From an uncultured delta proteobacterium (GTDB lineage: Bacteria; Myxococcota_A; Polyangia; Polyangiales; Polyangiaceae): a stretch of 64,000 nt of DNA. The position numbers were made by a program, and so were the translations under genes. The notes beneath the pieces are model-generated. The model saw only the letters and a list, made by a program, of their open reading frames with translations, did no database searches and was not told where the DNA came from. Positions 39,795 to 55,864 of the stretch are shown one piece after another; position 1 is the stretch's first letter, and every line of letters starts with the position of its first letter. The DNA lies in assembly GCA_963841435.1 (NCBI GenBank), contig CAWJCS010000005.1, forward strand, positions 128,001-192,000, given 5' to 3'.

Positions 39795-40688
39795 GTGAGC
39801 GAAAACGACGAGAAGACACGCGTCACGCAGGTGGTGCAGGCCCCGCCGCCCGATCAGCCGGCTGGAAACGACTGCGTCGTCGTGATTTACGCCGCGGAGG
39901 CGGGTCTGCTCGGCAAGCGTTTCGTGCTCGACAAGAGCCCGCTGCGCGTGGGCCGTGGGGGTGACAACGCCATCGTGCTCGACGGCGACTCGGTGTCACG
40001 GCGGCACGCGCACTTCGAGCGGCGGGGCGGCGCGTGGCACATCGTCGACAACGGTTCCACGAACGGTACGTTCCTGAACGAGGAACAGGTGCGGGGCGAA
40101 GCGCCGCTCGCCAACGGCGATCGCGTGAAAATCGGCCCGAGCATCCTCAAGTACCTGTCGGGGCTCGATGCCGAGGCAAAGTACCACGAAGAGATCTATC
40201 GCATGACGATCGTGGATGGCCTCACGCAGATCCACAACAAGCGCTACCTCTTCGAGGCCCTCGACCGCGAGCTCATCCGCGCGCGTCGCTACGATCGCCA
40301 GCTCTCTCTTCTGATCTTCGACATCGACTACTTCAAGAACATCAACGATCAGTACGGACACCTCGCAGGCGACCACGTGCTCCGGGAGCTCGCGCGCATC
40401 GTGCAGGAACGCATCCGACGCGACGAGGTGTTCGCCCGCTACGGCGGCGAGGAGTTCGTGGTCGTGCTACCGGAAACGCCCTTGCCGGGCGGCGTGGCGC
40501 TTGCGGAAAATGTGCGCGCACGCGTCGAAACGCACGGCTTCGCATTCCAGGGGGAACGCATCCCCGTGACGATTAGCGTCGGCTGCGCCATGCTCGGTGA
40601 CGAGAAGACCGCAGTCGAGCTCATCCAGCGTGCCGACGACAAGCTCTACGAAGCCAAACGCGGCGGACGCAACCGCGTCTGCTCCTAG
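39795..40688 (+). CDS. FHA-GGDEF diguanylate cyclase
   Basis: GR, VSRRH, STNGT FHA motifs; DGLT, DIDYFK.IND.YGH..GD, RYGGEEF. Confidence 0.93.
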   Translation: MSENDEKTRVTQVVQAPPPDQPAGNDCVVVIYAAEAGLLGKRFVLDKSPLRVGRGGDNAIVLDGDSVSRRHAHFERRGGAWHIVDNGSTNGTFLNEEQVRGEAPLANGDRVKIGPSILKYLSGLDAEAKYHEEIYRMTIVDGLTQIHNKRYLFEALDRELIRARRYDRQLSLLIFDIDYFKNINDQYGHLAGDHVLRELARIVQERIRRDEVFARYGGEEFVVVLPETPLPGGVALAENVRARVETHGFAFQGERIPVTISVGCAMLGDEKTAVELIQRADDKLYEAKRGGRNRVCS

Positions 40689-40695
40689 CGCGCCC

Positions 40696-42003
40696 GTGCC
40701 CACCCCGGCCCCAGAAGGGCGCGGCCAGGAGCCGCCGCTCGTCGTCACGCGCCCGCCCGGTCAGCACTCGCGCAGCTTCATGGTGCGGCACGCTCACGCC
40801 ACGGCCCCGATGGGCCCGGGGGGCCATCCGAGCACCATCGTCTACGCCACGGCCGAGGGCGCCAACGTCACCTGCGTCAACGGCAACCGCTACGTCAATC
40901 TCGCGGGCGGATTCGGGGCCGCGCTCGTGGGCCACCGCCACCCGAGCGTGCTCCGCGCCATCGAGCTCCAATCCGCGCGCCTGTTGCACGCGCTCGGCGA
41001 CCTCTACCCCTCGGACGCGAAAGTGGGCCTCGTCGAGCGGCTTTCCAGGCTTCACCCCAGCGAGGGCGCCCAGGTGATCCTCGGTCAGTCCGGCTCGGAC
41101 GCCGTCACGATCGCGCTGAAGACGGCCTGCCTCGCGACGGGCCGTCCCGGGGTCGTGGCGTTCGGCGAGGGGTATCACGGGCTCGGCTACGGGCCGCTCG
41201 CGGTCTCGGGCTTTCGGCCGAGCTATCGCGAGCCCTTCCGCGAGCAGCTGAACGCCCACGTTTGGTTCGTGCCCTACCCCGCGACGGACGAAGAGCTCGG
41301 ACCGGCGCTCGAAGCGGTGCGCACGGCGCTCGCCACGGGAACGGTCGGCGCGATCCTCGTCGAGCCCGTGCTCGGCCGCGGCGGTGTGATCGAGCCACCT
41401 GCGGCGTTTCTGCCGCAGCTCTTGGAGCTCGCGCGTGAAACAGGGGCGCTGTTCGTGACCGACGAGATCTGGACCGGCCTCGGACGGGCGGGAAGCCTTT
41501 TGGCGGCCGGTGTCGTGCCGGATCTCGTTTGCCTCGGCAAGGGCCTGGGCGGCGGCTTGCCGATCAGCGCGGTGCTCGGCCGGCGCGACGTGATGGCGGC
41601 ATGGCGGCGCCCCGACGAGGTCGTGCACACCTCGACGTTCGCGGGTGCGCCGCTAGCGGCGGCGGCCGCGCTCGCGACGCTCGACGTGCTCAGCCGCGCG
41701 GGTTTGCCCGAGCGCGCGGCGCGGGTCGGGGCGACCTTTCGAGACGGGCTCACGAGCGCTCTCGCCCCATTTCCGGACGTCCGCGTGCGGGGCCGCGGGC
41801 TCATGCTGGGCGTCGAGATCGAGGGGCGGCCGGGCGCCGCGAGGCGCGCCCTAGTTTCGCTGCTCGAGCGCGGCTTCCTCGCGACGACCGGCGGCGCGAC
41901 GCGCGAGACGCTCGTCTTCACGCCACCGCTGACGATTGCGGAAGCTTTGCTAGCCCTCGCGACGACGGCCGTGCGAGAAGCCGTGCAGGAAGCCATTCGA
42001 TGA
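40696..42003 (+). CDS. Class III PLP aminotransferase (start uncertain)
   Basis: SGSDAV..ALK, YHG, EPVLGRGG, DEIWTGLGR, GKGLGGG (PLP Lys), STFAG. Confidence 0.9.
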   Translation: MPTPAPEGRGQEPPLVVTRPPGQHSRSFMVRHAHATAPMGPGGHPSTIVYATAEGANVTCVNGNRYVNLAGGFGAALVGHRHPSVLRAIELQSARLLHALGDLYPSDAKVGLVERLSRLHPSEGAQVILGQSGSDAVTIALKTACLATGRPGVVAFGEGYHGLGYGPLAVSGFRPSYREPFREQLNAHVWFVPYPATDEELGPALEAVRTALATGTVGAILVEPVLGRGGVIEPPAAFLPQLLELARETGALFVTDEIWTGLGRAGSLLAAGVVPDLVCLGKGLGGGLPISAVLGRRDVMAAWRRPDEVVHTSTFAGAPLAAAAALATLDVLSRAGLPERAARVGATFRDGLTSALAPFPDVRVRGRGLMLGVEIEGRPGAARRALVSLLERGFLATTGGATRETLVFTPPLTIAEALLALATTAVREAVQEAIR

Positions 42004-43106
42004 CGTTCACCGTGGAGTCGGACAACCTGCACCGGCGCGTACGTCGCTTCGCGCGCGGCGAGGGCACTGACGACTTCGATACGCTCGCGCTCGAGATTGC
42101 GCGCTACCAGGCGCGACGCTCGCCGCGCTACGCGAAGCTCGTCGCGAGCCGCGGCTCGACGCTCGACGCGGCATCGAGCATCGTCGCGGTCCCCTCCGAT
42201 GCTTTCCGGCTCGCGCGAGTCGCCGTTCACCCCGAGTCCGAGGACATGGCCCGTTTCGAGACGAGCGGCACGACGGGCAGCGCGAGGGGCGTCCACGCGT
42301 TTCGCTCGCTCGAGACCTACCGCGAGCTCGCTCTCGCCTACGGCGAGCAGGCACTGCTCGGCGCGCGACGCGGGCCACGCGTCGTCGTCAGCCTCTCGCC
42401 CGCGCCGAGCGTTCCGCAGCGCTCGTCGCTCGGCTTCATGGCGGAGCTGTTCCAGGCTCGCTGGGACGGGCGCTCGCTCGGCGGGGGCCCATTCGCCGCG
42501 CGCGCCGCGGAGCGCTGGCTCGCGGGGCCGGGTGGCATCGACGTGTCCGGCCTCGAGCTGGCGTGTCTCGTCGCCGAACGCCGCCGCGAGCCGTTGCTCG
42601 TGCTCGCGACGGCCTTCGCACTGGTGGCGTTGCTCGACGCGCTCGGCGGTCGCGTGATCCCGGCGCCATCGGACAGCACCATCATGATGACGGGCGGCTT
42701 CAAGGGTCGCTCGCGCGAGGTGGTGCGCGCCGACCTGCGCCGCTCCGTCGCGCAGGCCTTCGGCGTGTCCGAAGCACACGTGGTCACCGAGTACGGCATG
42801 ACGGAGCTCACGAGCCAGCTCTACGAGGGCACGCTGCCCGGAGCGCGACTCGCGGGGGATTCCGACGTGCTTTTGCCGCCACCGTGGCTCCGCGTCGAGC
42901 CCGTCGACCCCGCGACGCTCGAGCCGGTGGCACCCGGCTCGGTCGGCATCGCGCGCTTCGTCGATCTCGGCAACGTGGACTCGGCCGTCGCGGTCCAGAC
43001 CGACGACCTGGTGCGAAACGCAGGGGTGGGCATCGAGCTCTTCGGCCGGCGCCCCGGCGCGCCGGCACGCGGCTGCTCGCTTGCGCTGGAGGCGCTCGTC
43101 GGGTGA
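42000..43106 (+). CDS. LuxE-like acyl-protein synthetase
   Basis: FETSGTTG, TGGFKGR, EYGMTELTSQLY, VQTDDL, C-terminal GR....RGCSL. Confidence 0.85.
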   Translation: MTFTVESDNLHRRVRRFARGEGTDDFDTLALEIARYQARRSPRYAKLVASRGSTLDAASSIVAVPSDAFRLARVAVHPESEDMARFETSGTTGSARGVHAFRSLETYRELALAYGEQALLGARRGPRVVVSLSPAPSVPQRSSLGFMAELFQARWDGRSLGGGPFAARAAERWLAGPGGIDVSGLELACLVAERRREPLLVLATAFALVALLDALGGRVIPAPSDSTIMMTGGFKGRSREVVRADLRRSVAQAFGVSEAHVVTEYGMTELTSQLYEGTLPGARLAGDSDVLLPPPWLRVEPVDPATLEPVAPGSVGIARFVDLGNVDSAVAVQTDDLVRNAGVGIELFGRRPGAPARGCSLALEALVG

Positions 43107-44146
43107 GCGCGCGCGCAGAGGCACGGCGCCGTGTCGAACGTCTCGTCGAGGCCGCTCGGCTGATCGCAACACCCGGGAGCGGCCTCGGGCAACGCGCCCG
43201 GCGCGAGCTTCCGGAAACGACGGGGCTTTCCGCCCAGGGCGTCGAGCTTGCGCTCACCGAGTGCCTCGAGAGCGAGCCGACCGAGCAGGAGCTCGACGAG
43301 CTCGTCGGCGCGGCGGCCCCGGCGCGACGCGCGCACGTGCTCTTGCCCGCGAACGTTTTCGTTGCCGCACACCGGGCCATCGCGCTCGCGCTCGCGGCGT
43401 CACCGGAAGTGTTCGTGCGACCTTCGCGTCGGGAGCCGTGCTTCGCGCGTCTACTCGCCGAGGGCGCCCCCGGATTGTTCCAAATCGTGGACAACCTCAA
43501 GCCAGAGCCCGGCGACACGCTGCATGCCTACGGGACCGAGCAGACTCTCGAAAGCGTTCGCCGGGAGCTTGTTCTGGGCGTCCACCTCGAGGCGCACGGA
43601 CCCGGGCACGGCGTCGCCGTGGTCGAGCAGGAGCGCGCCACGCTCGGCGCCGCACGAGCCATTGCTCGTGACATCGTGCCGTTCGACCAGCGCGGCTGCC
43701 TGAGCCCACGCGTCGCGCTGTTCGTCGGTACCGTGGATGCCGCGCGTACGTTCGCCCAGGCCGTTGCCGGTGCGCTCGCCGAGCTCGAGGCGCGCGTTCC
43801 ACTCGGGCGGCTCGACGCCGAAGAGCGCGCCGAAATCGCGCGTTTTCGCGACACGTTCGCCTACGCGGGCGAGCTTTTTCCGGCGGGCTCGGGCTGGGTC
43901 GCCATCGGGCCCGAGCGCGCGCCCCGTGTCGCACCGGACGGACGCAATCTGTTGATCCTACCGAGCGCCGACCCCGTCCGAACCCTCGCTGGCTCGGCGC
44001 CCGAAGTGACGGCGCTCGGTCTCGCCGCCGGACAGAAGCACGAGGCCTCGCTCGCGGCGACGCTACCCCGCGCGCGATACTCCGCGCTCGGCGCGATGCA
44101 GCGGCCGCGCTTCGACGGACCCGCCGACCGGCGCGGCATGGCCTGA
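43103..44146 (+). CDS. LuxC-like acyl-CoA/acyl-protein reductase
   Basis: HVLLPANV, RPSRRE, AYGT, HGPGHG, FDQRGCLSP (catalytic Cys), LGAMQRP. Confidence 0.8.
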   Translation: MSARAEARRRVERLVEAARLIATPGSGLGQRARRELPETTGLSAQGVELALTECLESEPTEQELDELVGAAAPARRAHVLLPANVFVAAHRAIALALAASPEVFVRPSRREPCFARLLAEGAPGLFQIVDNLKPEPGDTLHAYGTEQTLESVRRELVLGVHLEAHGPGHGVAVVEQERATLGAARAIARDIVPFDQRGCLSPRVALFVGTVDAARTFAQAVAGALAELEARVPLGRLDAEERAEIARFRDTFAYAGELFPAGSGWVAIGPERAPRVAPDGRNLLILPSADPVRTLAGSAPEVTALGLAAGQKHEASLAATLPRARYSALGAMQRPRFDGPADRRGMA

Positions 44147-44161: not shown

Positions 44162-44187
44162 GCCGCGCGGGGAAACGCCCGCGCGGC
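44162..44187. terminator. GC-rich hairpin between convergent genes
   Basis: Perfect 10-bp stem gccgcgcggg-gaaacg-cccgcgcggc; no U tract. Confidence 0.5.
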
Positions 44188-44570
44188 TACTTGCCGGCGA
44201 GCTTCTTGGCGCGCTCCTTGGCCGTCTCGACGATGTGCTTGGTGTCGGCGTCGGAAAACTCGAGGTGCTCCGCGAGCGACTTCAAGAGCTTCGCCTCGGC
44301 CGGCGTCTGCTTGCCGTCGGCGTGCGTGAGAAGCGCCGCGTGCGAAAGTAGGATCTCCCGGCCCTCGGCGTCGAGCGCCTTGGCGACGATGTCACCCTTG
44401 ATGGTGCGCTTCTTCTTGGCAAACTCGCGGATTTCCGCCTCTTCCTCGTCGCTCGCGCCGAATGCCCAGAGCAGGCTGTCGATCATGCCGGACTCGGGCT
44501 CCGCGAGAGACCCGTCCGCCCACGCCACGGCCACCAGCGACTTCACGATCGTCTTCTCGACAGGGGTCAT
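44187..44570 (-). CDS. TerB-like protein
   Basis: VAWADG....E and LTHADG....E duplicated motif. Confidence 0.8.
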   Translation of the reverse strand: MTPVEKTIVKSLVAVAWADGSLAEPESGMIDSLLWAFGASDEEEAEIREFAKKKRTIKGDIVAKALDAEGREILLSHAALLTHADGKQTPAEAKLLKSLAEHLEFSDADTKHIVETAKERAKKLAGK

Positions 44571-44716: not shown

Positions 44717-46591
44717 CTAGTCGACCAGCGGTAGCCGGCGCGGGGACGCCTGCCGGTCGGCGCGGACGACGACGCTGAGCGGACCGTCAGGAAGCGGCAG
44801 ATTCTGGTTCTTCGCGTACACGGGGTGGCGGCCGCGCGTCTTGAACCATTCGGCGACCGTCGCAGTGCGCTTCATGCTCTCGACGATCTGACGGAAGCCG
44901 ACGCCGGTGTTGTAGGCGCAGAACGAGATCTCGCCGAGCTGTGTGCCGTAAGGAATGATGCACATCTCGGTGCGACGAAAGTCGTAGTTGTAGAGATCCT
45001 GGAACCACATGCCCGCCACGAACAAGAATCGCCATTCGAACTCGCCGGCGTCGCCCTCGCTCGCGCCCACGCGGTCTCCACTGGCTCCCATCTGGCTCGT
45101 TGCCTGGCGGAAGAGCTCGTAAAACGAGTAGCCCTTCGGGGCGCGCTCGGCGCGGTAGTTCCGGAGCAGCGAGAGTCCCATCGCCGTGAGCGTCGCCGGG
45201 CGGGAGAGCGCCAGATCCGCAACGGACTGCATGTCGGCGAGCACCGCCTCGATGTCGATGATCTCGGCGAGCGGCACCATTTGCTTGGTGCGCTTGTTGA
45301 CGAGCAGCACCGTGCCGATGCCGCAGTTCGGGTGACAGCCGCAGTTGAGCGCGCCAAATTGCGCGTCCTTGCCGAGCAAGAGATCCACCACGTCGCTCAG
45401 CGAGTTCATGGCCGAGAGCGGGAACCAGTCACGGTGGGGCTCAGTGGCGCCGAGCTGGCGGTGCACGTCCCAGGCGAGGTGCGAGAGCGTGTAGCGCTCT
45501 GCGAGGCGCCGCTCGTCCTCGATGTTCTCGTCGCGACCGGTGAAGCTCACGGGCTGAAACGAGACGACCGTGATCTTGTCGGCGTTGTCGATTGCGAAGC
45601 GCACGACGGGGCCGACCTGGGCGTCGTTGACGCCGTTGACGACGGTCACGACGAGCACGACGTCGATCCCCGCGGCGGCGAGGTTCTCGATCGCGCGGAG
45701 CTTCACGTCGAACAAGTTGCCCACCTTGCGATGCGAGTTCGCTTCGTTCGTGACGCCATCGAACTGCAGGTAGCAGAGCCTGAGTCCGGCCTCTCGCACC
45801 GCATGGCAGAGCTCCGGCTCCTGCGCGAAGCGAATGCCGTTCGTCGCGCACTGCACCGAGAAGTAGCCAATCTTTCTGGCATGGGCGATGGCGCGGAGAA
45901 AGTGCGGGCTGAGCGTCGGCTCGCCACCCGAAAACTGCACGCTGAGCTGCCGGCGCGGCTTCACGGACAGCGAGTCGTCGAGGATCTGCTGCACGTCCGC
46001 CCACTCGAGCTCGTGGACGAAGCCGACCTGATTCGCGTCCATGAAGCACGGGTCACACATCATGTTGCAGCGGTTCGTGAGGTCGACCGTGAGCACGGCA
46101 CCGCGCCCGTACTTGATCGACGAGGTGCCGTGCTTGCGGAGCGGCGTCGGCGGCGACTTCTGGTCACGCCCCGGAAACAAGCGCTCGATGCGGGACAGGA
46201 ATGCCGGGTCGATACTGATCACGTCCTCGAAGGCGCCGTGCTTGGCACACTCCTTCTGCATCACGACGGCACCGCCCTTTTCCACGATGTGAGCGCGGAT
46301 TTCGCCCGGGTGCTCGTGCAGAAAGGAGGACATCTCCATGGCGCCGGACAGCACCGCCGCCCGCGCCTCGCGCACGCATACCGGACAGAGCGAGTCGGTC
46401 TGCCGCGGCCAGCCGAGTGGCGGAAATGACTTTTGACGCCGTTTGGAAAGCGGCGCCGCCGCCCAGGGGGGCTTCAAGGTCTGCCCCGGAAGTCGCTCGC
46501 CGAGCGACATCACGAGCGGCCAGGCAAGGTTGGCGGCCCGGCCGACGAGCTTCTCGGTTCCGATTCTCAGGGCCCGGAGCGAAGCTGGCAT
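44717..46591 (-). CDS. Radical SAM protein of the MJ0619/Tes (tetraether lipid synthase) family
   Basis: SLCPVC..KECAKHG, DLTNRCNMMCDPCF, QFSGGEPT, YLQFDG, FQPVSFTGR, CHPNCG, MWFQDLYNYD, CIIPY..FCAYN. Confidence 0.8.
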   Translation of the reverse strand: MPASLRALRIGTEKLVGRAANLAWPLVMSLGERLPGQTLKPPWAAAPLSKRRQKSFPPLGWPRQTDSLCPVCVREARAAVLSGAMEMSSFLHEHPGEIRAHIVEKGGAVVMQKECAKHGAFEDVISIDPAFLSRIERLFPGRDQKSPPTPLRKHGTSSIKYGRGAVLTVDLTNRCNMMCDPCFMDANQVGFVHELEWADVQQILDDSLSVKPRRQLSVQFSGGEPTLSPHFLRAIAHARKIGYFSVQCATNGIRFAQEPELCHAVREAGLRLCYLQFDGVTNEANSHRKVGNLFDVKLRAIENLAAAGIDVVLVVTVVNGVNDAQVGPVVRFAIDNADKITVVSFQPVSFTGRDENIEDERRLAERYTLSHLAWDVHRQLGATEPHRDWFPLSAMNSLSDVVDLLLGKDAQFGALNCGCHPNCGIGTVLLVNKRTKQMVPLAEIIDIEAVLADMQSVADLALSRPATLTAMGLSLLRNYRAERAPKGYSFYELFRQATSQMGASGDRVGASEGDAGEFEWRFLFVAGMWFQDLYNYDFRRTEMCIIPYGTQLGEISFCAYNTGVGFRQIVESMKRTATVAEWFKTRGRHPVYAKNQNLPLPDGPLSVVVRADRQASPRRLPLVD

Positions 46592-46646: not shown

Positions 46647-47804
46647 ATGAACCTGCTCGAGCGGCCGCTCGTCATCGTCTGCGACGTACACCTTTCGCAC
46701 GACGGGCGACGAGAGACCGGTCGCGATCTCGCTCGTTTGCTCGGGCGTCACCCGGACGCGGAAGTGGTGCTAAACGGCGACATTTTCAACCTGTCGCTCG
46801 ACCCTGCGAGTCGCGATCCCGTCGAAAGCGTCATGGGGATGCTCACTCCCGAAGCGGAGCTCAAAGAAGCTATGGGGAACCACCTGCGCGCCGGCTCGCC
46901 GATCCGCCTCCTGCCGGGCAATCACGATGCCGCCCTGGCGCTGCCGGGCCTTTCGGGCCCGTTTCTCGGCTGGCTCGGGCTCGACGAGCGGGCGCCGTTT
47001 TCGATCGTCCCGTGGTTTCTTCGGCGTGGCGGGGTCCACGTCGAGCACGGCCACGTTTACGATCCGGACAACGCGCCGAGCCATCCGCTCTGCGTGCCGA
47101 GCGCGGCGACCGAGCCGCTCGGCGTTGCCCTTACGCGACGCTTCCTCGGCCCGAACCAAGCTTTCGACTTCGCGCACGCGACGGAGATCACGCCGCTCGC
47201 GGCACTCGAGCGCGCGGTCCACGTGTTCGGCCCGAGGATGCCCATGATGCTCGCGCGCTACTTCCTCGAAGCGGGGCGCTTCTGCCACCACGCTGGGTTT
47301 AGCCCGGCGCTCGCCGACGAGCTCCGGACCGGCGACGCACGGCTGGCCGAAACGGCCGAGGCAACGGGCGTCCCCGAAGGCGAGCTACGTGCCTTGCTCG
47401 ACGATCGACCGCGCCCGACGCACGAAAGCTTCGAGCGGGCCTTCTTCCGGCTGTACTTCGATCGCGTCGCGACCACGGTGGGAGCGCTCGGGCTCGTCGG
47501 CCTCGGCCTCGCGACGCGCAGTGTGGGCGTGCTCGGCCTGGGTGCGCTCTCGGCGCTTTACCTCGGGCGATCCGTGCGAGGCGGCGCGAATCGCTATGCC
47601 GGGCTACCAGTGCGGCGCTTGCGTACCGCGAGCGAGCGCGTTCGCACGCTAACGGGAGCAAGCTCGGTGATCTTCGGTCACACGCACGTGCCCGACACGG
47701 CGCCCGGCTACCTGAACCCGGGGTCCTTCACCTACCGGAGCGGCCCGGGACGACCGTACGCGTACGTCGAGCCGTCCGGTGGCGTGAGGACAGAGCTCAT
47801 CTGA
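46647..47804 (+). CDS. Calcineurin-like metallophosphoesterase (LpxH-like) with C-terminal TM
   Basis: DVHL, NGDIF, GNHD, HGH, GHTH, NPGS. Confidence 0.85.
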   Translation: MNLLERPLVIVCDVHLSHDGRRETGRDLARLLGRHPDAEVVLNGDIFNLSLDPASRDPVESVMGMLTPEAELKEAMGNHLRAGSPIRLLPGNHDAALALPGLSGPFLGWLGLDERAPFSIVPWFLRRGGVHVEHGHVYDPDNAPSHPLCVPSAATEPLGVALTRRFLGPNQAFDFAHATEITPLAALERAVHVFGPRMPMMLARYFLEAGRFCHHAGFSPALADELRTGDARLAETAEATGVPEGELRALLDDRPRPTHESFERAFFRLYFDRVATTVGALGLVGLGLATRSVGVLGLGALSALYLGRSVRGGANRYAGLPVRRLRTASERVRTLTGASSVIFGHTHVPDTAPGYLNPGSFTYRSGPGRPYAYVEPSGGVRTELI

Positions 47805-54027: not shown

Positions 54028-54747
54028 TTACACCTTCAGGCTGAAGGGCGTGAACTTCGTGTCGCGGTCGAAATAGTCCTCGTGCTCGGCGCGTTTGAAG
54101 AACGCCACGACGCGGTAGGTGAGCGGCGTCGCAACGACCTCCCACCCGACCTTGATCAGGTAGTTTGCCAGCATCACGCGCACGAGCAGGTCGTTGGGCA
54201 TCCAGCCTTCACCGTAGAAAGCCAGGGGATAGAAGATCACGGTGTCAACGGCCTCGCCGGCGATCGTCGAGCCGATCGTGCGCGAGAAAAGCCAGCGGCC
54301 GCCCGTGAGCACCTTCATCTTGGCGAGCGTGTAGGAGTTGACGAACTCGCCACAGAAGTAGGCGATGAGCGAGCCGAGCGCGACGCGCCACGTGGCGCCG
54401 AACGCCCATTCGAGCTGGGCTTGGTCGGTGAACTGGTCCGCGGGCGGCAGGCCCACGACGACGAAGCTCTGAAACGCCGCGAACGCGAGCGCCGCGAAGC
54501 CCGCCCACACGACGCGCCGCGAGCGCGCGTAACCGTAGACCTCGGTGAGCACGTCGCCGAACAGGTACGCGATGGGAAAGAATAGATTCCCCGCGCCGAA
54601 CGCGAAGAGCTCCTTCCCGTCCAAGGCGACGTGCGTGATCTTGCGCACGCCGATCAGGTTGCTGCACAAGAGCACGCAAACGAACGCGGCCATGACTAGG
54701 TCGTAGTAGCGGTAGCGGCGCGCCGGACGGTGCGCGTCGTCAGCCAT
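54028..54747 (-). CDS. yhhQ: Queuosine precursor transporter (VUT family)
   Basis: FP..YLFGDVLTEVYGY, SLIAY, RTIGSTIAGE.VDT. Confidence 0.88.
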   Translation of the reverse strand: MADDAHRPARRYRYYDLVMAAFVCVLLCSNLIGVRKITHVALDGKELFAFGAGNLFFPIAYLFGDVLTEVYGYARSRRVVWAGFAALAFAAFQSFVVVGLPPADQFTDQAQLEWAFGATWRVALGSLIAYFCGEFVNSYTLAKMKVLTGGRWLFSRTIGSTIAGEAVDTVIFYPLAFYGEGWMPNDLLVRVMLANYLIKVGWEVVATPLTYRVVAFFKRAEHEDYFDRDTKFTPFSLKV

Positions 54748-55864
54748 TCCACTTGCCCATCGCGGGGCTTTCGAGCGCTTTCGGACGCTTCTCGCCGCGC
54801 GCCACTCGGTCGACGAGCTCGTCGACGCACGCATAGAGCATGTCGTTGCTCGTCGGCACGTCCGCGGGGAAGGCGCGACCGAACTCGCCCGAGCGCTCGA
54901 GAAACGCGCCGATCGGCTCGGCCTCGAAGCGACGCGACCAGGCGCCCACGCCGAGCGCTTCGAGATAACGTGCGTTCAGCTCCTGCTCGTACTGGCCGGA
55001 TACCGGAATCGACAGCGTGGGGATCCCGAGGCTAACCGCCTCGGCGAGCAGCGAAAATCCTCCGCCCGCGATCACGGCGCGCGCGCCCGTGAGATCGTCG
55101 ACGAAGCGCTCCTCCGAGAACGGGCACAAGGTCACGTTCCCCTCGCTGCCCTCGCGACCGAGCCCGTAGACGCGGAAACGAAAGGGCAGTCGCTTGAGCG
55201 TCGGCACGAGCGCCTGATTGGTGGTCTGCGTCTGGTAGACGAGCACGTGGTCGCGCGGCTGCCAGGTGCGGCCGAGGAGCTCCGGACGCAGGATGGGAGG
55301 AATGAGCGTCGTGTACTTCTTGCGAACCGGCGGAAAGAAGAAGCTCGTGACGAGGTAGTGGTACGCCTTCGGCACCTTGATGCGCACGGCGAGGCGCGCC
55401 AGCTCGAAATCGAACCCCTTGGCGCGCACCACGGGGTCGTCGTGGCGACAGCGATTGATGATCTGCATGTTGTCGATGCTGATCACGGGCAGGCCGTGCC
55501 GCTTGGCGTAGAGCGCCGCCCACGACTCGAAGTCGCTGATGACGAGCTCGGGTGAAAACCCGGACTCTGCGACCTTGCGGTAGACCCCGACGTTCTTTCT
55601 GATGCTGCGCGGCGCGCGCTCGAGGTTGAAGAGCACGCTCTGCGTGCGGTCGAGCGAGTTGCCGAAGTAGCTCAGCACGAGGCCGTGGATCTCCTCGAGC
55701 GAGACGTTCTCGAAGGCAGCAAGCTTCTTCCCGAGAAACGCATGGGCCCTGCCGGACACCACGACGCGGATCTGGTGCCCGGCGCGCGCCAAGTGCTCCA
55801 GCACGACCAGGCTGCGAGTCGCGTGACCCATGCCCTCGCCGACGACGCCGTAGAGGATTTGCAC
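54740..55864 (-). CDS. Glycosyltransferase (MJ1255/GT28-like)
   Basis: ILYGVVGEGMGHATRS, ISDFE, GGGFSL..EA, QYEQELNA. Confidence 0.85.
   Translation of the reverse strand: MQILYGVVGEGMGHATRSLVVLEHLARAGHQIRVVVSGRAHAFLGKKLAAFENVSLEEIHGLVLSYFGNSLDRTQSVLFNLERAPRSIRKNVGVYRKVAESGFSPELVISDFESWAALYAKRHGLPVISIDNMQIINRCRHDDPVVRAKGFDFELARLAVRIKVPKAYHYLVTSFFFPPVRKKYTTLIPPILRPELLGRTWQPRDHVLVYQTQTTNQALVPTLKRLPFRFRVYGLGREGSEGNVTLCPFSEERFVDDLTGARAVIAGGGFSLLAEAVSLGIPTLSIPVSGQYEQELNARYLEALGVGAWSRRFEAEPIGAFLERSGEFGRAFPADVPTSNDMLYACVDELVDRVARGEKRPKALESPAMGKWNG

Follow-up and report, generated by a model that had tools for sequence, protein, structure and literature searches.

We report here a gene for an enzyme of the radical SAM (S-adenosylmethionine) kind at positions 44717-46591, minus strand, of a 64,000-nucleotide stretch of DNA from an uncultured delta proteobacterium of the Polyangiaceae (GenBank assembly GCA_963841435.1, contig CAWJCS010000005.1, positions 128,001 to 192,000; the whole stretch is referred to as the window). 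By sequence, by predicted fold and by its position in a phylogenetic tree the encoded protein (P0001) is a radical SAM enzyme of the Tes/MJ0619 type, that is, of the family of the tetraether lipid synthase (Tes), which joins lipid tails through C-C bonds to make membrane-spanning lipids. It belongs to a variant, called type B in what follows, that lacks the motif for one of the four metal sites of the archaeal enzyme and carries two further invariant cysteines beside a ligand of another. The gene is real and conserved and its product, to judge from the sequence, is almost certainly an active Tes-family radical SAM enzyme. As to what it makes, analogy with the archaeal enzyme leads us to favor, if only by a little over an even chance, a Tes-like tail-to-tail coupling of lipids, probably of iso-C15 chains to give iso-diabolic-type spanning lipids.

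The brGDGTs (branched glycerol dialkyl glycerol tetraethers) rank among the most widely used terrestrial proxies for palaeotemperature and pH, while it is still unsettled which enzymes form their spanning chains in aerobic bacteria and which organisms make them. Were the proposed function correct, the source organisms behind these palaeoclimate proxies would be widened to include common soil myxobacteria, and a natural variant without the N-terminal cluster would help to tell which cofactors C-C coupling needs. That bacterial Tes homologues are candidates for brGDGT synthesis has already been published (PMC8941075), so that the novelty of the present result is moderate. In the portions of the literature consulted we did not find the split between types A and B, the difference in cofactors, the fit to iso-diabolic-acid producers or the family trait in Polyangiaceae, which Chen et al. 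2025 or the supplement of Zeng 2022 may nevertheless hold.

Family assignment and metal sites

The open reading frame (ORF) starts with ATG, encodes 624 residues with no internal stops and has a third-position G+C fraction of 0.87 in a window of 68-70% G+C, as expected for coding sequence. An earlier note on this DNA, made from the letters alone, had recognized a Tes/MJ0619-like enzyme from a set of motifs, all of which are present: CPVC (residues 69-72), CAKHG (115-119), HGTSSIKYGRG (154-164), the radical SAM CxxxCxxC as CNMMCDPC (175-182), YLQFDG (274-279), FQPVS (345-349), CHPNCG (419-424) and the C-terminal MCIIPY...SFCAYN, which includes C544, F557, C558 and N561. These are motifs of a family and not products of chance, with Pfam placing a Radical_SAM domain at residues 171-332 (E 2e-20) and the zinc ribbon Zn_ribbon_HMPTM (HMPTM/Tes) at residues 62-126 (E 3e-13). 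The 119 matches listed after the query are 71-80% identical to it over 94-100% of its length, indicating strong purifying conservation, and the named close homologues all come from Polyangiaceae or from metagenome-assembled genomes (MAGs) of Myxococcota, in agreement with the earlier identification of the source as a myxobacterium.

The assignment to the Tes/MJ0619 type holds by several measures. The best NCBIfam model is the Tes equivalog NF045702, which covers the protein from model position 1 to 480 of 486 with a score of 324.7 bits (E 9e-97); the cut-off of that model is 450 bits, and type B relatives score 300-346 bits vs 461-645 bits for canonical Tes. The second model, TrsS (NF045646), gives 211.4 bits against a cut-off of 490 and spans the N-terminal two thirds only, placing the protein outside that family. 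The closest solved structure by sequence is GDGT-MAS of Methanocaldococcus jannaschii (7tol_A, E 6e-62, residues 98-583), followed by MoaA at E 4e-6. An AlphaFold2 model, built from a 33-sequence alignment, has a mean predicted local distance difference test score (pLDDT) of 87.9 and a predicted template modelling (TM) score of 0.90, and a Foldseek search with it returns 7TOM/7TOL first (E 7e-39, TM 0.89 on the target, 537-541 aligned columns) and MoaA as runner-up, at TM 0.52-0.54. The model contains the full GDGT-MAS fold, consisting of a rubredoxin domain, the radical SAM core and the C-terminal cluster/lipid-pocket domain, and in the region that matches the lipid pockets of GDGT-MAS helices are predicted with block pLDDT values of 88-96. 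A hydrophobicity scan of the protein finds no transmembrane-grade segment outside the barrel core. Because the score lies below the equivalog cut-off and one defining cofactor site is missing, we do not class the protein as Tes proper and treat it as a variant of its own, type B.

In order to define type B we have used an alignment of the window protein with 321 relatives, counted as 195 type B and 126 canonical sequences. The former comprise the 119 close homologues and 76 full-length proteins from genome loci, the latter 6 acidobacterial canonical (type A) proteins and 120 archaeal-type Tes. The genome loci derive from the 592 stretches in GTDB species genomes that encode a relative; all locus-based comparisons in this work use the best 80 of these 592, four of which gave proteins too short to align. 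Residues were matched to GDGT-MAS by converting the 7tol_A alignment to native M. jannaschii numbering, with a 20-residue chain tag by our own count. GDGT-MAS is described as having four metal sites, a rubredoxin-like iron, an N-terminal [4Fe-4S], the radical SAM cluster and a C-terminal [4Fe-4S] (Lloyd 2022, PMC9433317), and three of the four are retained in the window protein, as set out below from the N-terminus onward.

Residues 1-62 (46406-46591, minus strand, as for all features of the gene) form a type B-specific extension with a long amphipathic helix (3-33; block pLDDT 77-93, no transmembrane-grade hydrophobic window) and a PPLGWPR motif; a median of 68 residues precedes the first Cys in type B, vs 11 in archaeal-type Tes. 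The rubredoxin-like mononuclear iron domain follows at residues 63-126 (46214-46405) and includes a helical insert of ∼22 residues, so placed that 25-26 residues separate the second rubredoxin Cys (C72) from the following strand (I98) in type B, the canonical median being 4. Its ligands C69, C72, C115 and H118 are invariant in 195/195 type B sequences and match the CX2C...CX2H iron site of GDGT-MAS, given as C9X2C12X20C33X2H36 (PMC9433317). The N-terminal [4Fe-4S] is described there as a surface cluster held by C73, C77, C80 and a His, and it is here that the window protein departs from the archaeal enzyme. The segment HGTSSIKYGRG, within a Cys-free loop at residues 145-165 (46097-46159), aligns exactly with GCPYDCGLC of 7tol_A, as the earlier note had perceived in proposing a distinct subtype; the loop is disordered in the AlphaFold2 model, with pLDDT <50 at 149-152 and 155-161. 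The CxxxCxxC motif ahead of the radical SAM motif is found in 0/195 type B sequences and in 126/126 canonical ones (6/6 acidobacterial, 120/120 archaeal-type), and 194 of the 195 type B sequences have no Cys whatsoever in the replaced stretch. The loss of the motif for the N-terminal auxiliary cluster is thus real and clade-wide among the sequences aligned.

The catalytic sites are retained. The radical SAM motif C175-x3-C179-x2-C182 (46046-46069), recognized by Pfam, is invariant in all 321 aligned relatives. In the FQPVSFTGR loop (residues 345-353; 45533-45559) Q346, S349 and R353, invariant in 195/195 type B sequences, align with the GDGT-MAS residues Gln268, Ser271 and Arg275, described as binding 5'-deoxyadenosine and closing off the active site (PMC9433317). 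At C417-G-C419-H-P-N-C423-G (45320-45343), C423 corresponds to the Cys of the HxHCG stretch, is present in 321/321 relatives (195/195 type B) and would be a ligand of the C-terminal cluster, and C417 and C419, each present in 195/195 type B sequences, occur in 0/126 and 19/126 canonical ones, respectively. The remainder of that cluster lies at residues 520-561 (44909-45034), where the 7tol_A alignment equates M528, C544, Y548 and C558 with Met439, Cys456, Tyr459 and Cys470. In GDGT-MAS Met439 is described as a labile ligand and Tyr459 as conserved, the substrate radical being parked at this cluster as a C-S intermediate (PMC9433317). All four residues are present in 119/119 close homologues and each in 73-74 of the 76 genome-locus proteins, giving type B totals of 192/195 for M528, C544 and Y548 and 193/195 for C558. 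The C-terminal auxiliary [4Fe-4S] site (C423, C544, C558, M528, Y548) is therefore present by alignment, with the choice of Cys ligands deduced from conservation. CHPNCG and the C-terminal Cys pattern were considered as marks of the subtype, an idea that was dropped: CHPxCG and C...FC..N are found across the family and are general Tes features, belonging to the ligands of the C-terminal cluster. Cys438 of M. jannaschii was considered as a needed ligand missing here and was dropped, since canonical Tes too lack conservation at this position.

Taken together, the likeness to GDGT-MAS (7TOL, 7TOM) extends to the four-part fold, the CX3CX2C motif, the CX2C...CX2H iron site, the FQPVSFTGR loop and the C-terminal [4Fe-4S] ligands with the labile Met and conserved Tyr, at about 28-33% identity. 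The window protein differs in being without the N-terminal auxiliary [4Fe-4S] (C73/C77/C80 of the M. jannaschii protein), in gaining a ∼57-residue N-terminal extension with its long helix, the 22-residue rubredoxin insert, two invariant Cys beside the C-cluster ligand and a C-terminal tail of ∼40 residues, and in coming from a bacterial host with fatty-acyl rather than isoprenoid lipids. The acidobacterial type A proteins belong to the same family, have the same catalytic residues and co-occur with type B in genomes; they score 565-602 bits on the Tes model compared with 300-346 for type B, keep CxxxCxxC (6/6) and lack both the insert and C417. Orthologues of type B such as those of Polyangium fumosum DSM 14668 (L033) and Acidipila rosea DSM 103428 (L092) are 52-64% identical to the window protein over nearly the full length and have all of the subtype marks in common with it, the acidobacterial ones being about 700 residues long with a longer C-terminal tail.

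Two side observations concern intermediate and outlying forms. One representative of 601 residues (P0124), basal in the type B clade and scoring 414 bits on the Tes model, lacks both the N-terminal cluster Cys and the rubredoxin-domain insert, and as an intermediate form it suggests that cluster loss may have preceded the insert. P. fumosum (G303) encodes three Tes-related radical SAM paralogues (L103, L104, L105; 194-257 bits on the Tes model) that keep a GCPxDCGxC auxiliary-cluster motif and form a long-branched clade of their own.

Distribution and phylogeny

A single Tes-family gene is present in the source genome (7.78 Mb in 6 contigs, 95% complete), the four other matches to the Tes model being weak and of generic radical SAM type, and canonical Tes was not found in it in the scan with that model. 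A homologue at E ≤ 1e-40 is present in 17/23 genomes of the window's family vs 1/277 other Myxococcota, all at least 63% identical, and none of the 300 other sampled Myxococcota genomes has a second match at this threshold. Type B is accordingly a family trait of Polyangiaceae myxobacteria. Further afield, a search of 1.84 billion cluster representatives yields 481 at E ≤ 1e-30; scoring 32 near-full-length representatives on NCBIfam places 19 above the Tes cut-off and 13 below it, with the nearest to the window protein among the 13. The best 80 of the 592 stretches begin with Polyangiaceae and other Polyangia, including P. fumosum DSM 14668 (L033, 62%) and a Labilithrix MAG, and continue with Acidobacteriota at 52-64% identity: Acidobacteriaceae, Terracidiphilus, A. 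rosea DSM 103428, Bryobacteraceae and a MAG labelled Ca. Solibacter usitatus, together with Blastocatellia, Pyrinomonadaceae, Chloracidobacterium, Vicinamibacterales and Thermoanaerobaculia. They hold in addition one Gemmatimonadota MAG and a few oddly labelled MAGs amid acidobacterial sequences. Three of these MAGs, labelled Betaproteobacteria (L043), Bifidobacteriaceae (L053) and Dongiaceae (L030), have type B genes on very short branches among acidobacterial ones, L043 adjoining a Vicinamibacterales MAG in the tree, and faulty binning or labelling is a more probable cause of the odd labels than is gene transfer.

Scores on the Tes model across whole families are sharply bimodal. In the Bryobacteraceae-like family of the Solibacter-labelled MAG (121 genomes) 46 genomes have a canonical gene (462-599 bits, all but one at least 563) and at least 90 a type-B-like one (300-331 bits), and in the family of A. 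rosea (81 genomes) the corresponding numbers are 12 (568-602 bits) and 65 (300-335 bits), type B being assigned here by a bit score below the cut-off, a typing by score that was checked against motifs for 76 + 6 sequences only. Leaving aside the two genomes in each tally flagged as unpublished, type-B-like genes are found in at least 88/119 genomes with 46 canonical, and in 63/79 with 12 canonical. Type A is thus the minority form (46/121; 12/81), and the homologue of Ca. Solibacter usitatus Ellin6076, for which 40% identity to MA_1486 has been reported, is presumably of this type. Type B is a very large clade, common to Polyangiaceae and Acidobacteriota and not peculiar to the source organism. 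In some genomes the two types are neighbors, the two genes lying ≤4 kb apart on one contig in 6 genomes (G373, G401, G315, G348, G336, G462) and 11 kb apart in another (G480), with direct same-strand tandems of B followed by A in two acidobacterial loci, L120:4978-8960 (G373) and L121:4551-8584 (G401). Such close or tandem pairs suggest that the two paralogues act in one pathway.

Comparison with archaeal and acidobacterial Tes, proposed in the earlier note as a check, was made in a quick IQ-TREE analysis of 83 rows (LG+C20 PMSF, midpoint root, several long rows drawing a warning) for which support is by the Shimodaira-Hasegawa approximate likelihood ratio test (SH-aLRT) only. The type B clade has 45 rows (SH-aLRT 100) and a stem of 0.95 changes per column, and within it the window protein belongs to a Polyangia clade of 15 rows (support 98). 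Types A and B group with Methanomassiliicoccus and Thermoplasmata Tes in a 63-row clade (support 99), and the type B clade is separate from acidobacterial type A, itself a separate clade, and from the named archaeal Tes (Methanohalophilus, Archaeoglobus, Methanobacterium, Methanomassiliicoccus and others). The protein is hence placed within the Tes radiation. An approximately unbiased (AU) test on 44 rows (LG+G4) rejects the union of the non-Polyangia type B rows in one clade with p 0.016, the group having been named after the tree was seen. A group so chosen lends weak support to the suggestion that an ancestor of Polyangia acquired type B from an Acidobacteriota-like donor.

Proposed function and its alternatives

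If the GDGT-MAS mechanism carries over, a first SAM would be cleaved and the resulting 5'-deoxyadenosyl radical would take a hydrogen from a lipid tail at its terminal carbon; one of the sulfides in the C-terminal cluster would then hold the tail radical, and a second SAM would generate a radical on a second tail whose attack forms the C-C bond. The bacterial substrate would likely be the iso-C15 chain of a glycerolipid and the products iso-diabolic-acid-type membrane-spanning lipids, possibly in part ether-linked by way of an elbD-like gene cluster in the same genome. The organism itself may accordingly make membrane-spanning lipids, as was suggested in the earlier note, which offered new chemistry as the other option; new chemistry is possible and is required by nothing that we have found.

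The distribution of type B lends support to this proposal. The sampled taxa that carry it (Acidobacteriaceae, Bryobacteraceae-like genomes, Blastocatellia, Pyrinomonadaceae, Chloracidobacterium and Vicinamibacterales) are ones that we take to correspond roughly to acidobacterial subdivisions 1, 3, 4 and 6. With ∼28-33% identity to archaeal Tes, near-universal presence in the sampled families and the presumed match in subdivisions, type B is a natural candidate for an enzyme that has been missing. Iso-diabolic acid is reported from subdivisions 1, 3, 4 and 6, and a Tes homologue from only 3/14 of the acidobacteria that produce it, using filters of E ≤ 1e-50 and at least 30% identity to M. aeolicus Tes (Sahonero-Canavesi 2022, PMC13159169); Table S21 of that work, from strict BLAST with archaeal Tes, has a Tes entry for only 2/9 of the listed subdivision-1 producers and scores Edaphobacter, Granulicella and Terriglobus as Tes-negative. 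Mss, a radical SAM enzyme of Thermotoga and Thermoanaerobacter shown to couple fatty-acyl tails to diabolic acids, was reported in 0/14 of those producers, and the authors therefore proposed an alternative pathway (PMC13159169). By its description there Mss is only remotely related to Tes and comes so far from anaerobes; the Tes model, run as a control against Thermotoga maritima, finds nothing at E ≤ 1e-30, compared with 9e-97 for the window protein. The distribution of type B fits the iso-diabolic-acid-producing groups of acidobacteria better than does that of canonical Tes or Mss.

Bacterial Tes homologues, of which 456 were found, have been proposed as the brGDGT enzymes (Zeng 2022, PMC8941075). 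Ca. S. usitatus Ellin6076 makes brGDGTs; the homologue with 40% identity to MA_1486 is given for it in the Chen 2022 preprint, and Halamka 2022 (PMC10087280) invokes 'one or both' of the homologues that it has. Chen et al. 2025 (Geochim Cosmochim Acta 401:190) is cited in PMC13023045 and PMC13274423 for a part played by Tes in the iso-diabolic tetraesters of Ca. Koribacter versatilis. In its widest form, then, the proposal would be that type B is the missing aerobic iso-diabolic-acid synthase of Acidobacteria, obtained by a Polyangiaceae ancestor from an Acidobacteriota-like donor, that Polyangiaceae are unrecognized producers of iso-diabolic esters/ethers or of brGDGT-type lipids, and that coupling needs only two [4Fe-4S] clusters and the rubredoxin iron; type B would have escaped notice since BLAST searches from archaeal Tes, when filtered strictly, pick up chiefly the canonical type, which is the rarer one. 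We put this forward tentatively, thinking the whole of it rather more apt to fail than to hold.

Several observations weigh against a Tes-like coupling activity. The score of the window protein lies under the cut-off for equivalogs of Tes, and with one of the four GDGT-MAS metallocofactors missing and two new invariant Cys at the catalytic cluster the chemistry could well differ. The phyletic match between type B and the producers is a correlation among kin, in which related genomes have been typed by bit score. In the literature searched on diabolic acid and Myxococc there is no report of myxobacterial diabolic acids, Myxococcus appearing in the articles consulted only with regard to ElbD, and a broader search had no article on both among its top 15. 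The articles consulted show no activity for any type B protein. Finally, among 81 loci no neighboring gene family, lipid genes included, is widely shared once self and antisense ORFs are set aside.

The most serious competitor, which we nonetheless judge unlikely, is that this member of the Tes family, though directed at lipids, carries out some other reaction, such as closing a macrocycle within one lipid, cross-linking, or acting on another hydrophobic chain. The long stem of the clade (0.95), C417 and C419 at the catalytic cluster and the loss of the N-terminal cluster would all be accounted for in this manner, and the many acidobacteria that keep both B and A, sometimes in tandem, suggest that the tasks of the two are not quite identical. 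There is precedent as well, in that the archaeal paralogue MA_1114 is reported to have given only trace macrocyclic archaeol (Zeng 2022, PMC8941075) and GDGT-MAS itself also makes a macrocyclic product. On the other hand, the residues by which the coupling mechanism is defined, namely the equivalents of Met439 and Tyr459 and the ligands of the C-cluster, are all kept, and type B occurs alone in Polyangiaceae and in most genomes of the Acidobacteriaceae family, so that it must work without type A. That same solitary occurrence bears on the notion that type B itself couples nothing and serves canonical Tes as an accessory or redox partner, which the tandem pairs of some acidobacteria might otherwise recommend: the source genome has no canonical Tes, no sampled genome of the phylum has a second match at E ≤ 1e-40, and the SAM-cleaving and C-cluster residues are all conserved, leaving this role very improbable.

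A non-lipid substrate, be it a peptide, a cofactor or a secondary metabolite, would mean that the likeness to Tes is one of scaffold only. Radical SAM families often diversify in substrate, the score is under the equivalog cut-off and P. fumosum has its three further Tes-related paralogues; yet no precursor-peptide, biosynthetic-cluster or cofactor gene is conserved nearby (the best family reaches 13/81 loci), the full C-terminal domain that forms the lipid pockets in GDGT-MAS is predicted with high confidence to be retained, and the near-universal, single-copy, housekeeping-like spread through whole families fits a membrane role better than a secondary metabolite. We regard such a substrate as improbable. 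Some databases name these proteins 7,8-dihydro-6-hydroxymethylpterin dimethyltransferase, a JGI name carried by several close homologues and echoed in the HMPTM of the Pfam zinc ribbon, and of all the functions considered this has the least to recommend it, its likelihood being close to negligible; a myxobacterium would not be expected to make methanopterin. The name of the zinc-ribbon domain is a relic of the old annotation of MJ0619, for which that activity was an earlier proposal, not corroborated by Lloyd 2022 before lipid coupling was shown (PMC9433317).

Tail-to-tail coupling by type B is open to direct study in cultured strains, P. fumosum DSM 14668 and A. rosea DSM 103428 among them. 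Myxococcus xanthus would be a natural expression host, as it is rich in iso-C15 and ether lipids and as only 1/277 sampled Myxococcota outside the window's family has a homologue. Should the gene prove to make no such lipids, the result would be a caution for any metagenomic source attribution that takes 'Tes homologue present' as its marker.

Ether-lipid genes and gene neighborhood

Ether-lipid genes had been named in the earlier note as worth seeking in the source genome, and the search was successful in part. An elbB-E-like ether-lipid cluster lies outside the window on contig C3 (L116:2734-11109), and no HGD-D match for a PlsA/Ger-type ester reductase was found in the 95% complete genome. 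The cluster contains an ElbD-like protein of 1628 residues (L116:3803-8689, minus strand) with FAR-like (NAD_binding_4, Sterile), AMP-binding, PP-binding (acyl carrier protein) and acyltransferase domains; its gene is flanked by one for an NAD-epimerase, with Lar_N-like and HAD-family genes upstream. This make-up is that of ElbD with ElbE and ElbB in the ether-lipid operon of M. xanthus (PMC9131029). The presence of the cluster makes alkyl-ether formation by the myxobacterial route plausible.

The gene divergent from the Tes-like one encodes a calcineurin-like metallophosphoesterase (46647-47804, plus strand; Pfam Metallophos, E 3.7e-6) with a probable ATG at 46647 (MNLLERPLVIVCDVHL), 55 bp from the Tes-like start. 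It had been described as a membrane LpxH-like phosphoesterase; the divergent arrangement and the phosphoesterase family stand, and the remainder is not supported, as no NCBIfam model, LpxH included, matches the protein and its hydrophobicity is limited to a single borderline stretch (best 19-residue Kyte-Doolittle mean 1.65). Nor does the neighbor merit much weight, being kept, among 80 related loci, in the closest 5 only. A TerB-domain gene lies downstream of the Tes-like gene and on its strand (44187-44570, minus; Pfam TerB, E 8e-9). A tblastn search of 10 window neighbors against the 80 loci finds the phosphoesterase in 5, the LuxC-like gene in 4, TerB and GGDEF in 3 each, the aminotransferase and an amine oxidase in 2 each, LolA in 1 and three other neighbors in 0, so that synteny is confined to the closest relatives. 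Clustering of 1568 codon-bias-filtered ORFs from 81 loci gives, as the top non-self neighbor families, a protein of unknown function with no Pfam match (13/81), an ABC ATPase (8), a mixed TPR/QueG-like family (8) and a MacB-like permease (7). The gene context argues neither for nor against a lipid role.

Three further features of the window may be recorded. A LuxC-like acyl-CoA reductase gene and a class-III aminotransferase gene lie side by side at 40597-44146 (plus strand), are kept in 2-4 of the 80 related loci, and could together take an acyl thioester through the aldehyde to an amine. An FHA-GGDEF diguanylate cyclase gene is found at 39795-40688 (plus), its ORF running into that of the aminotransferase where the latter begins, if the aminotransferase is read from its first start codon. 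At 54740-55864 and 54028-54834, both on the minus strand, a Glyco_trans_1_3 glycosyltransferase (E 5e-112) adjoins a Vut_1 family transporter, with no evident link to the Tes-like gene.

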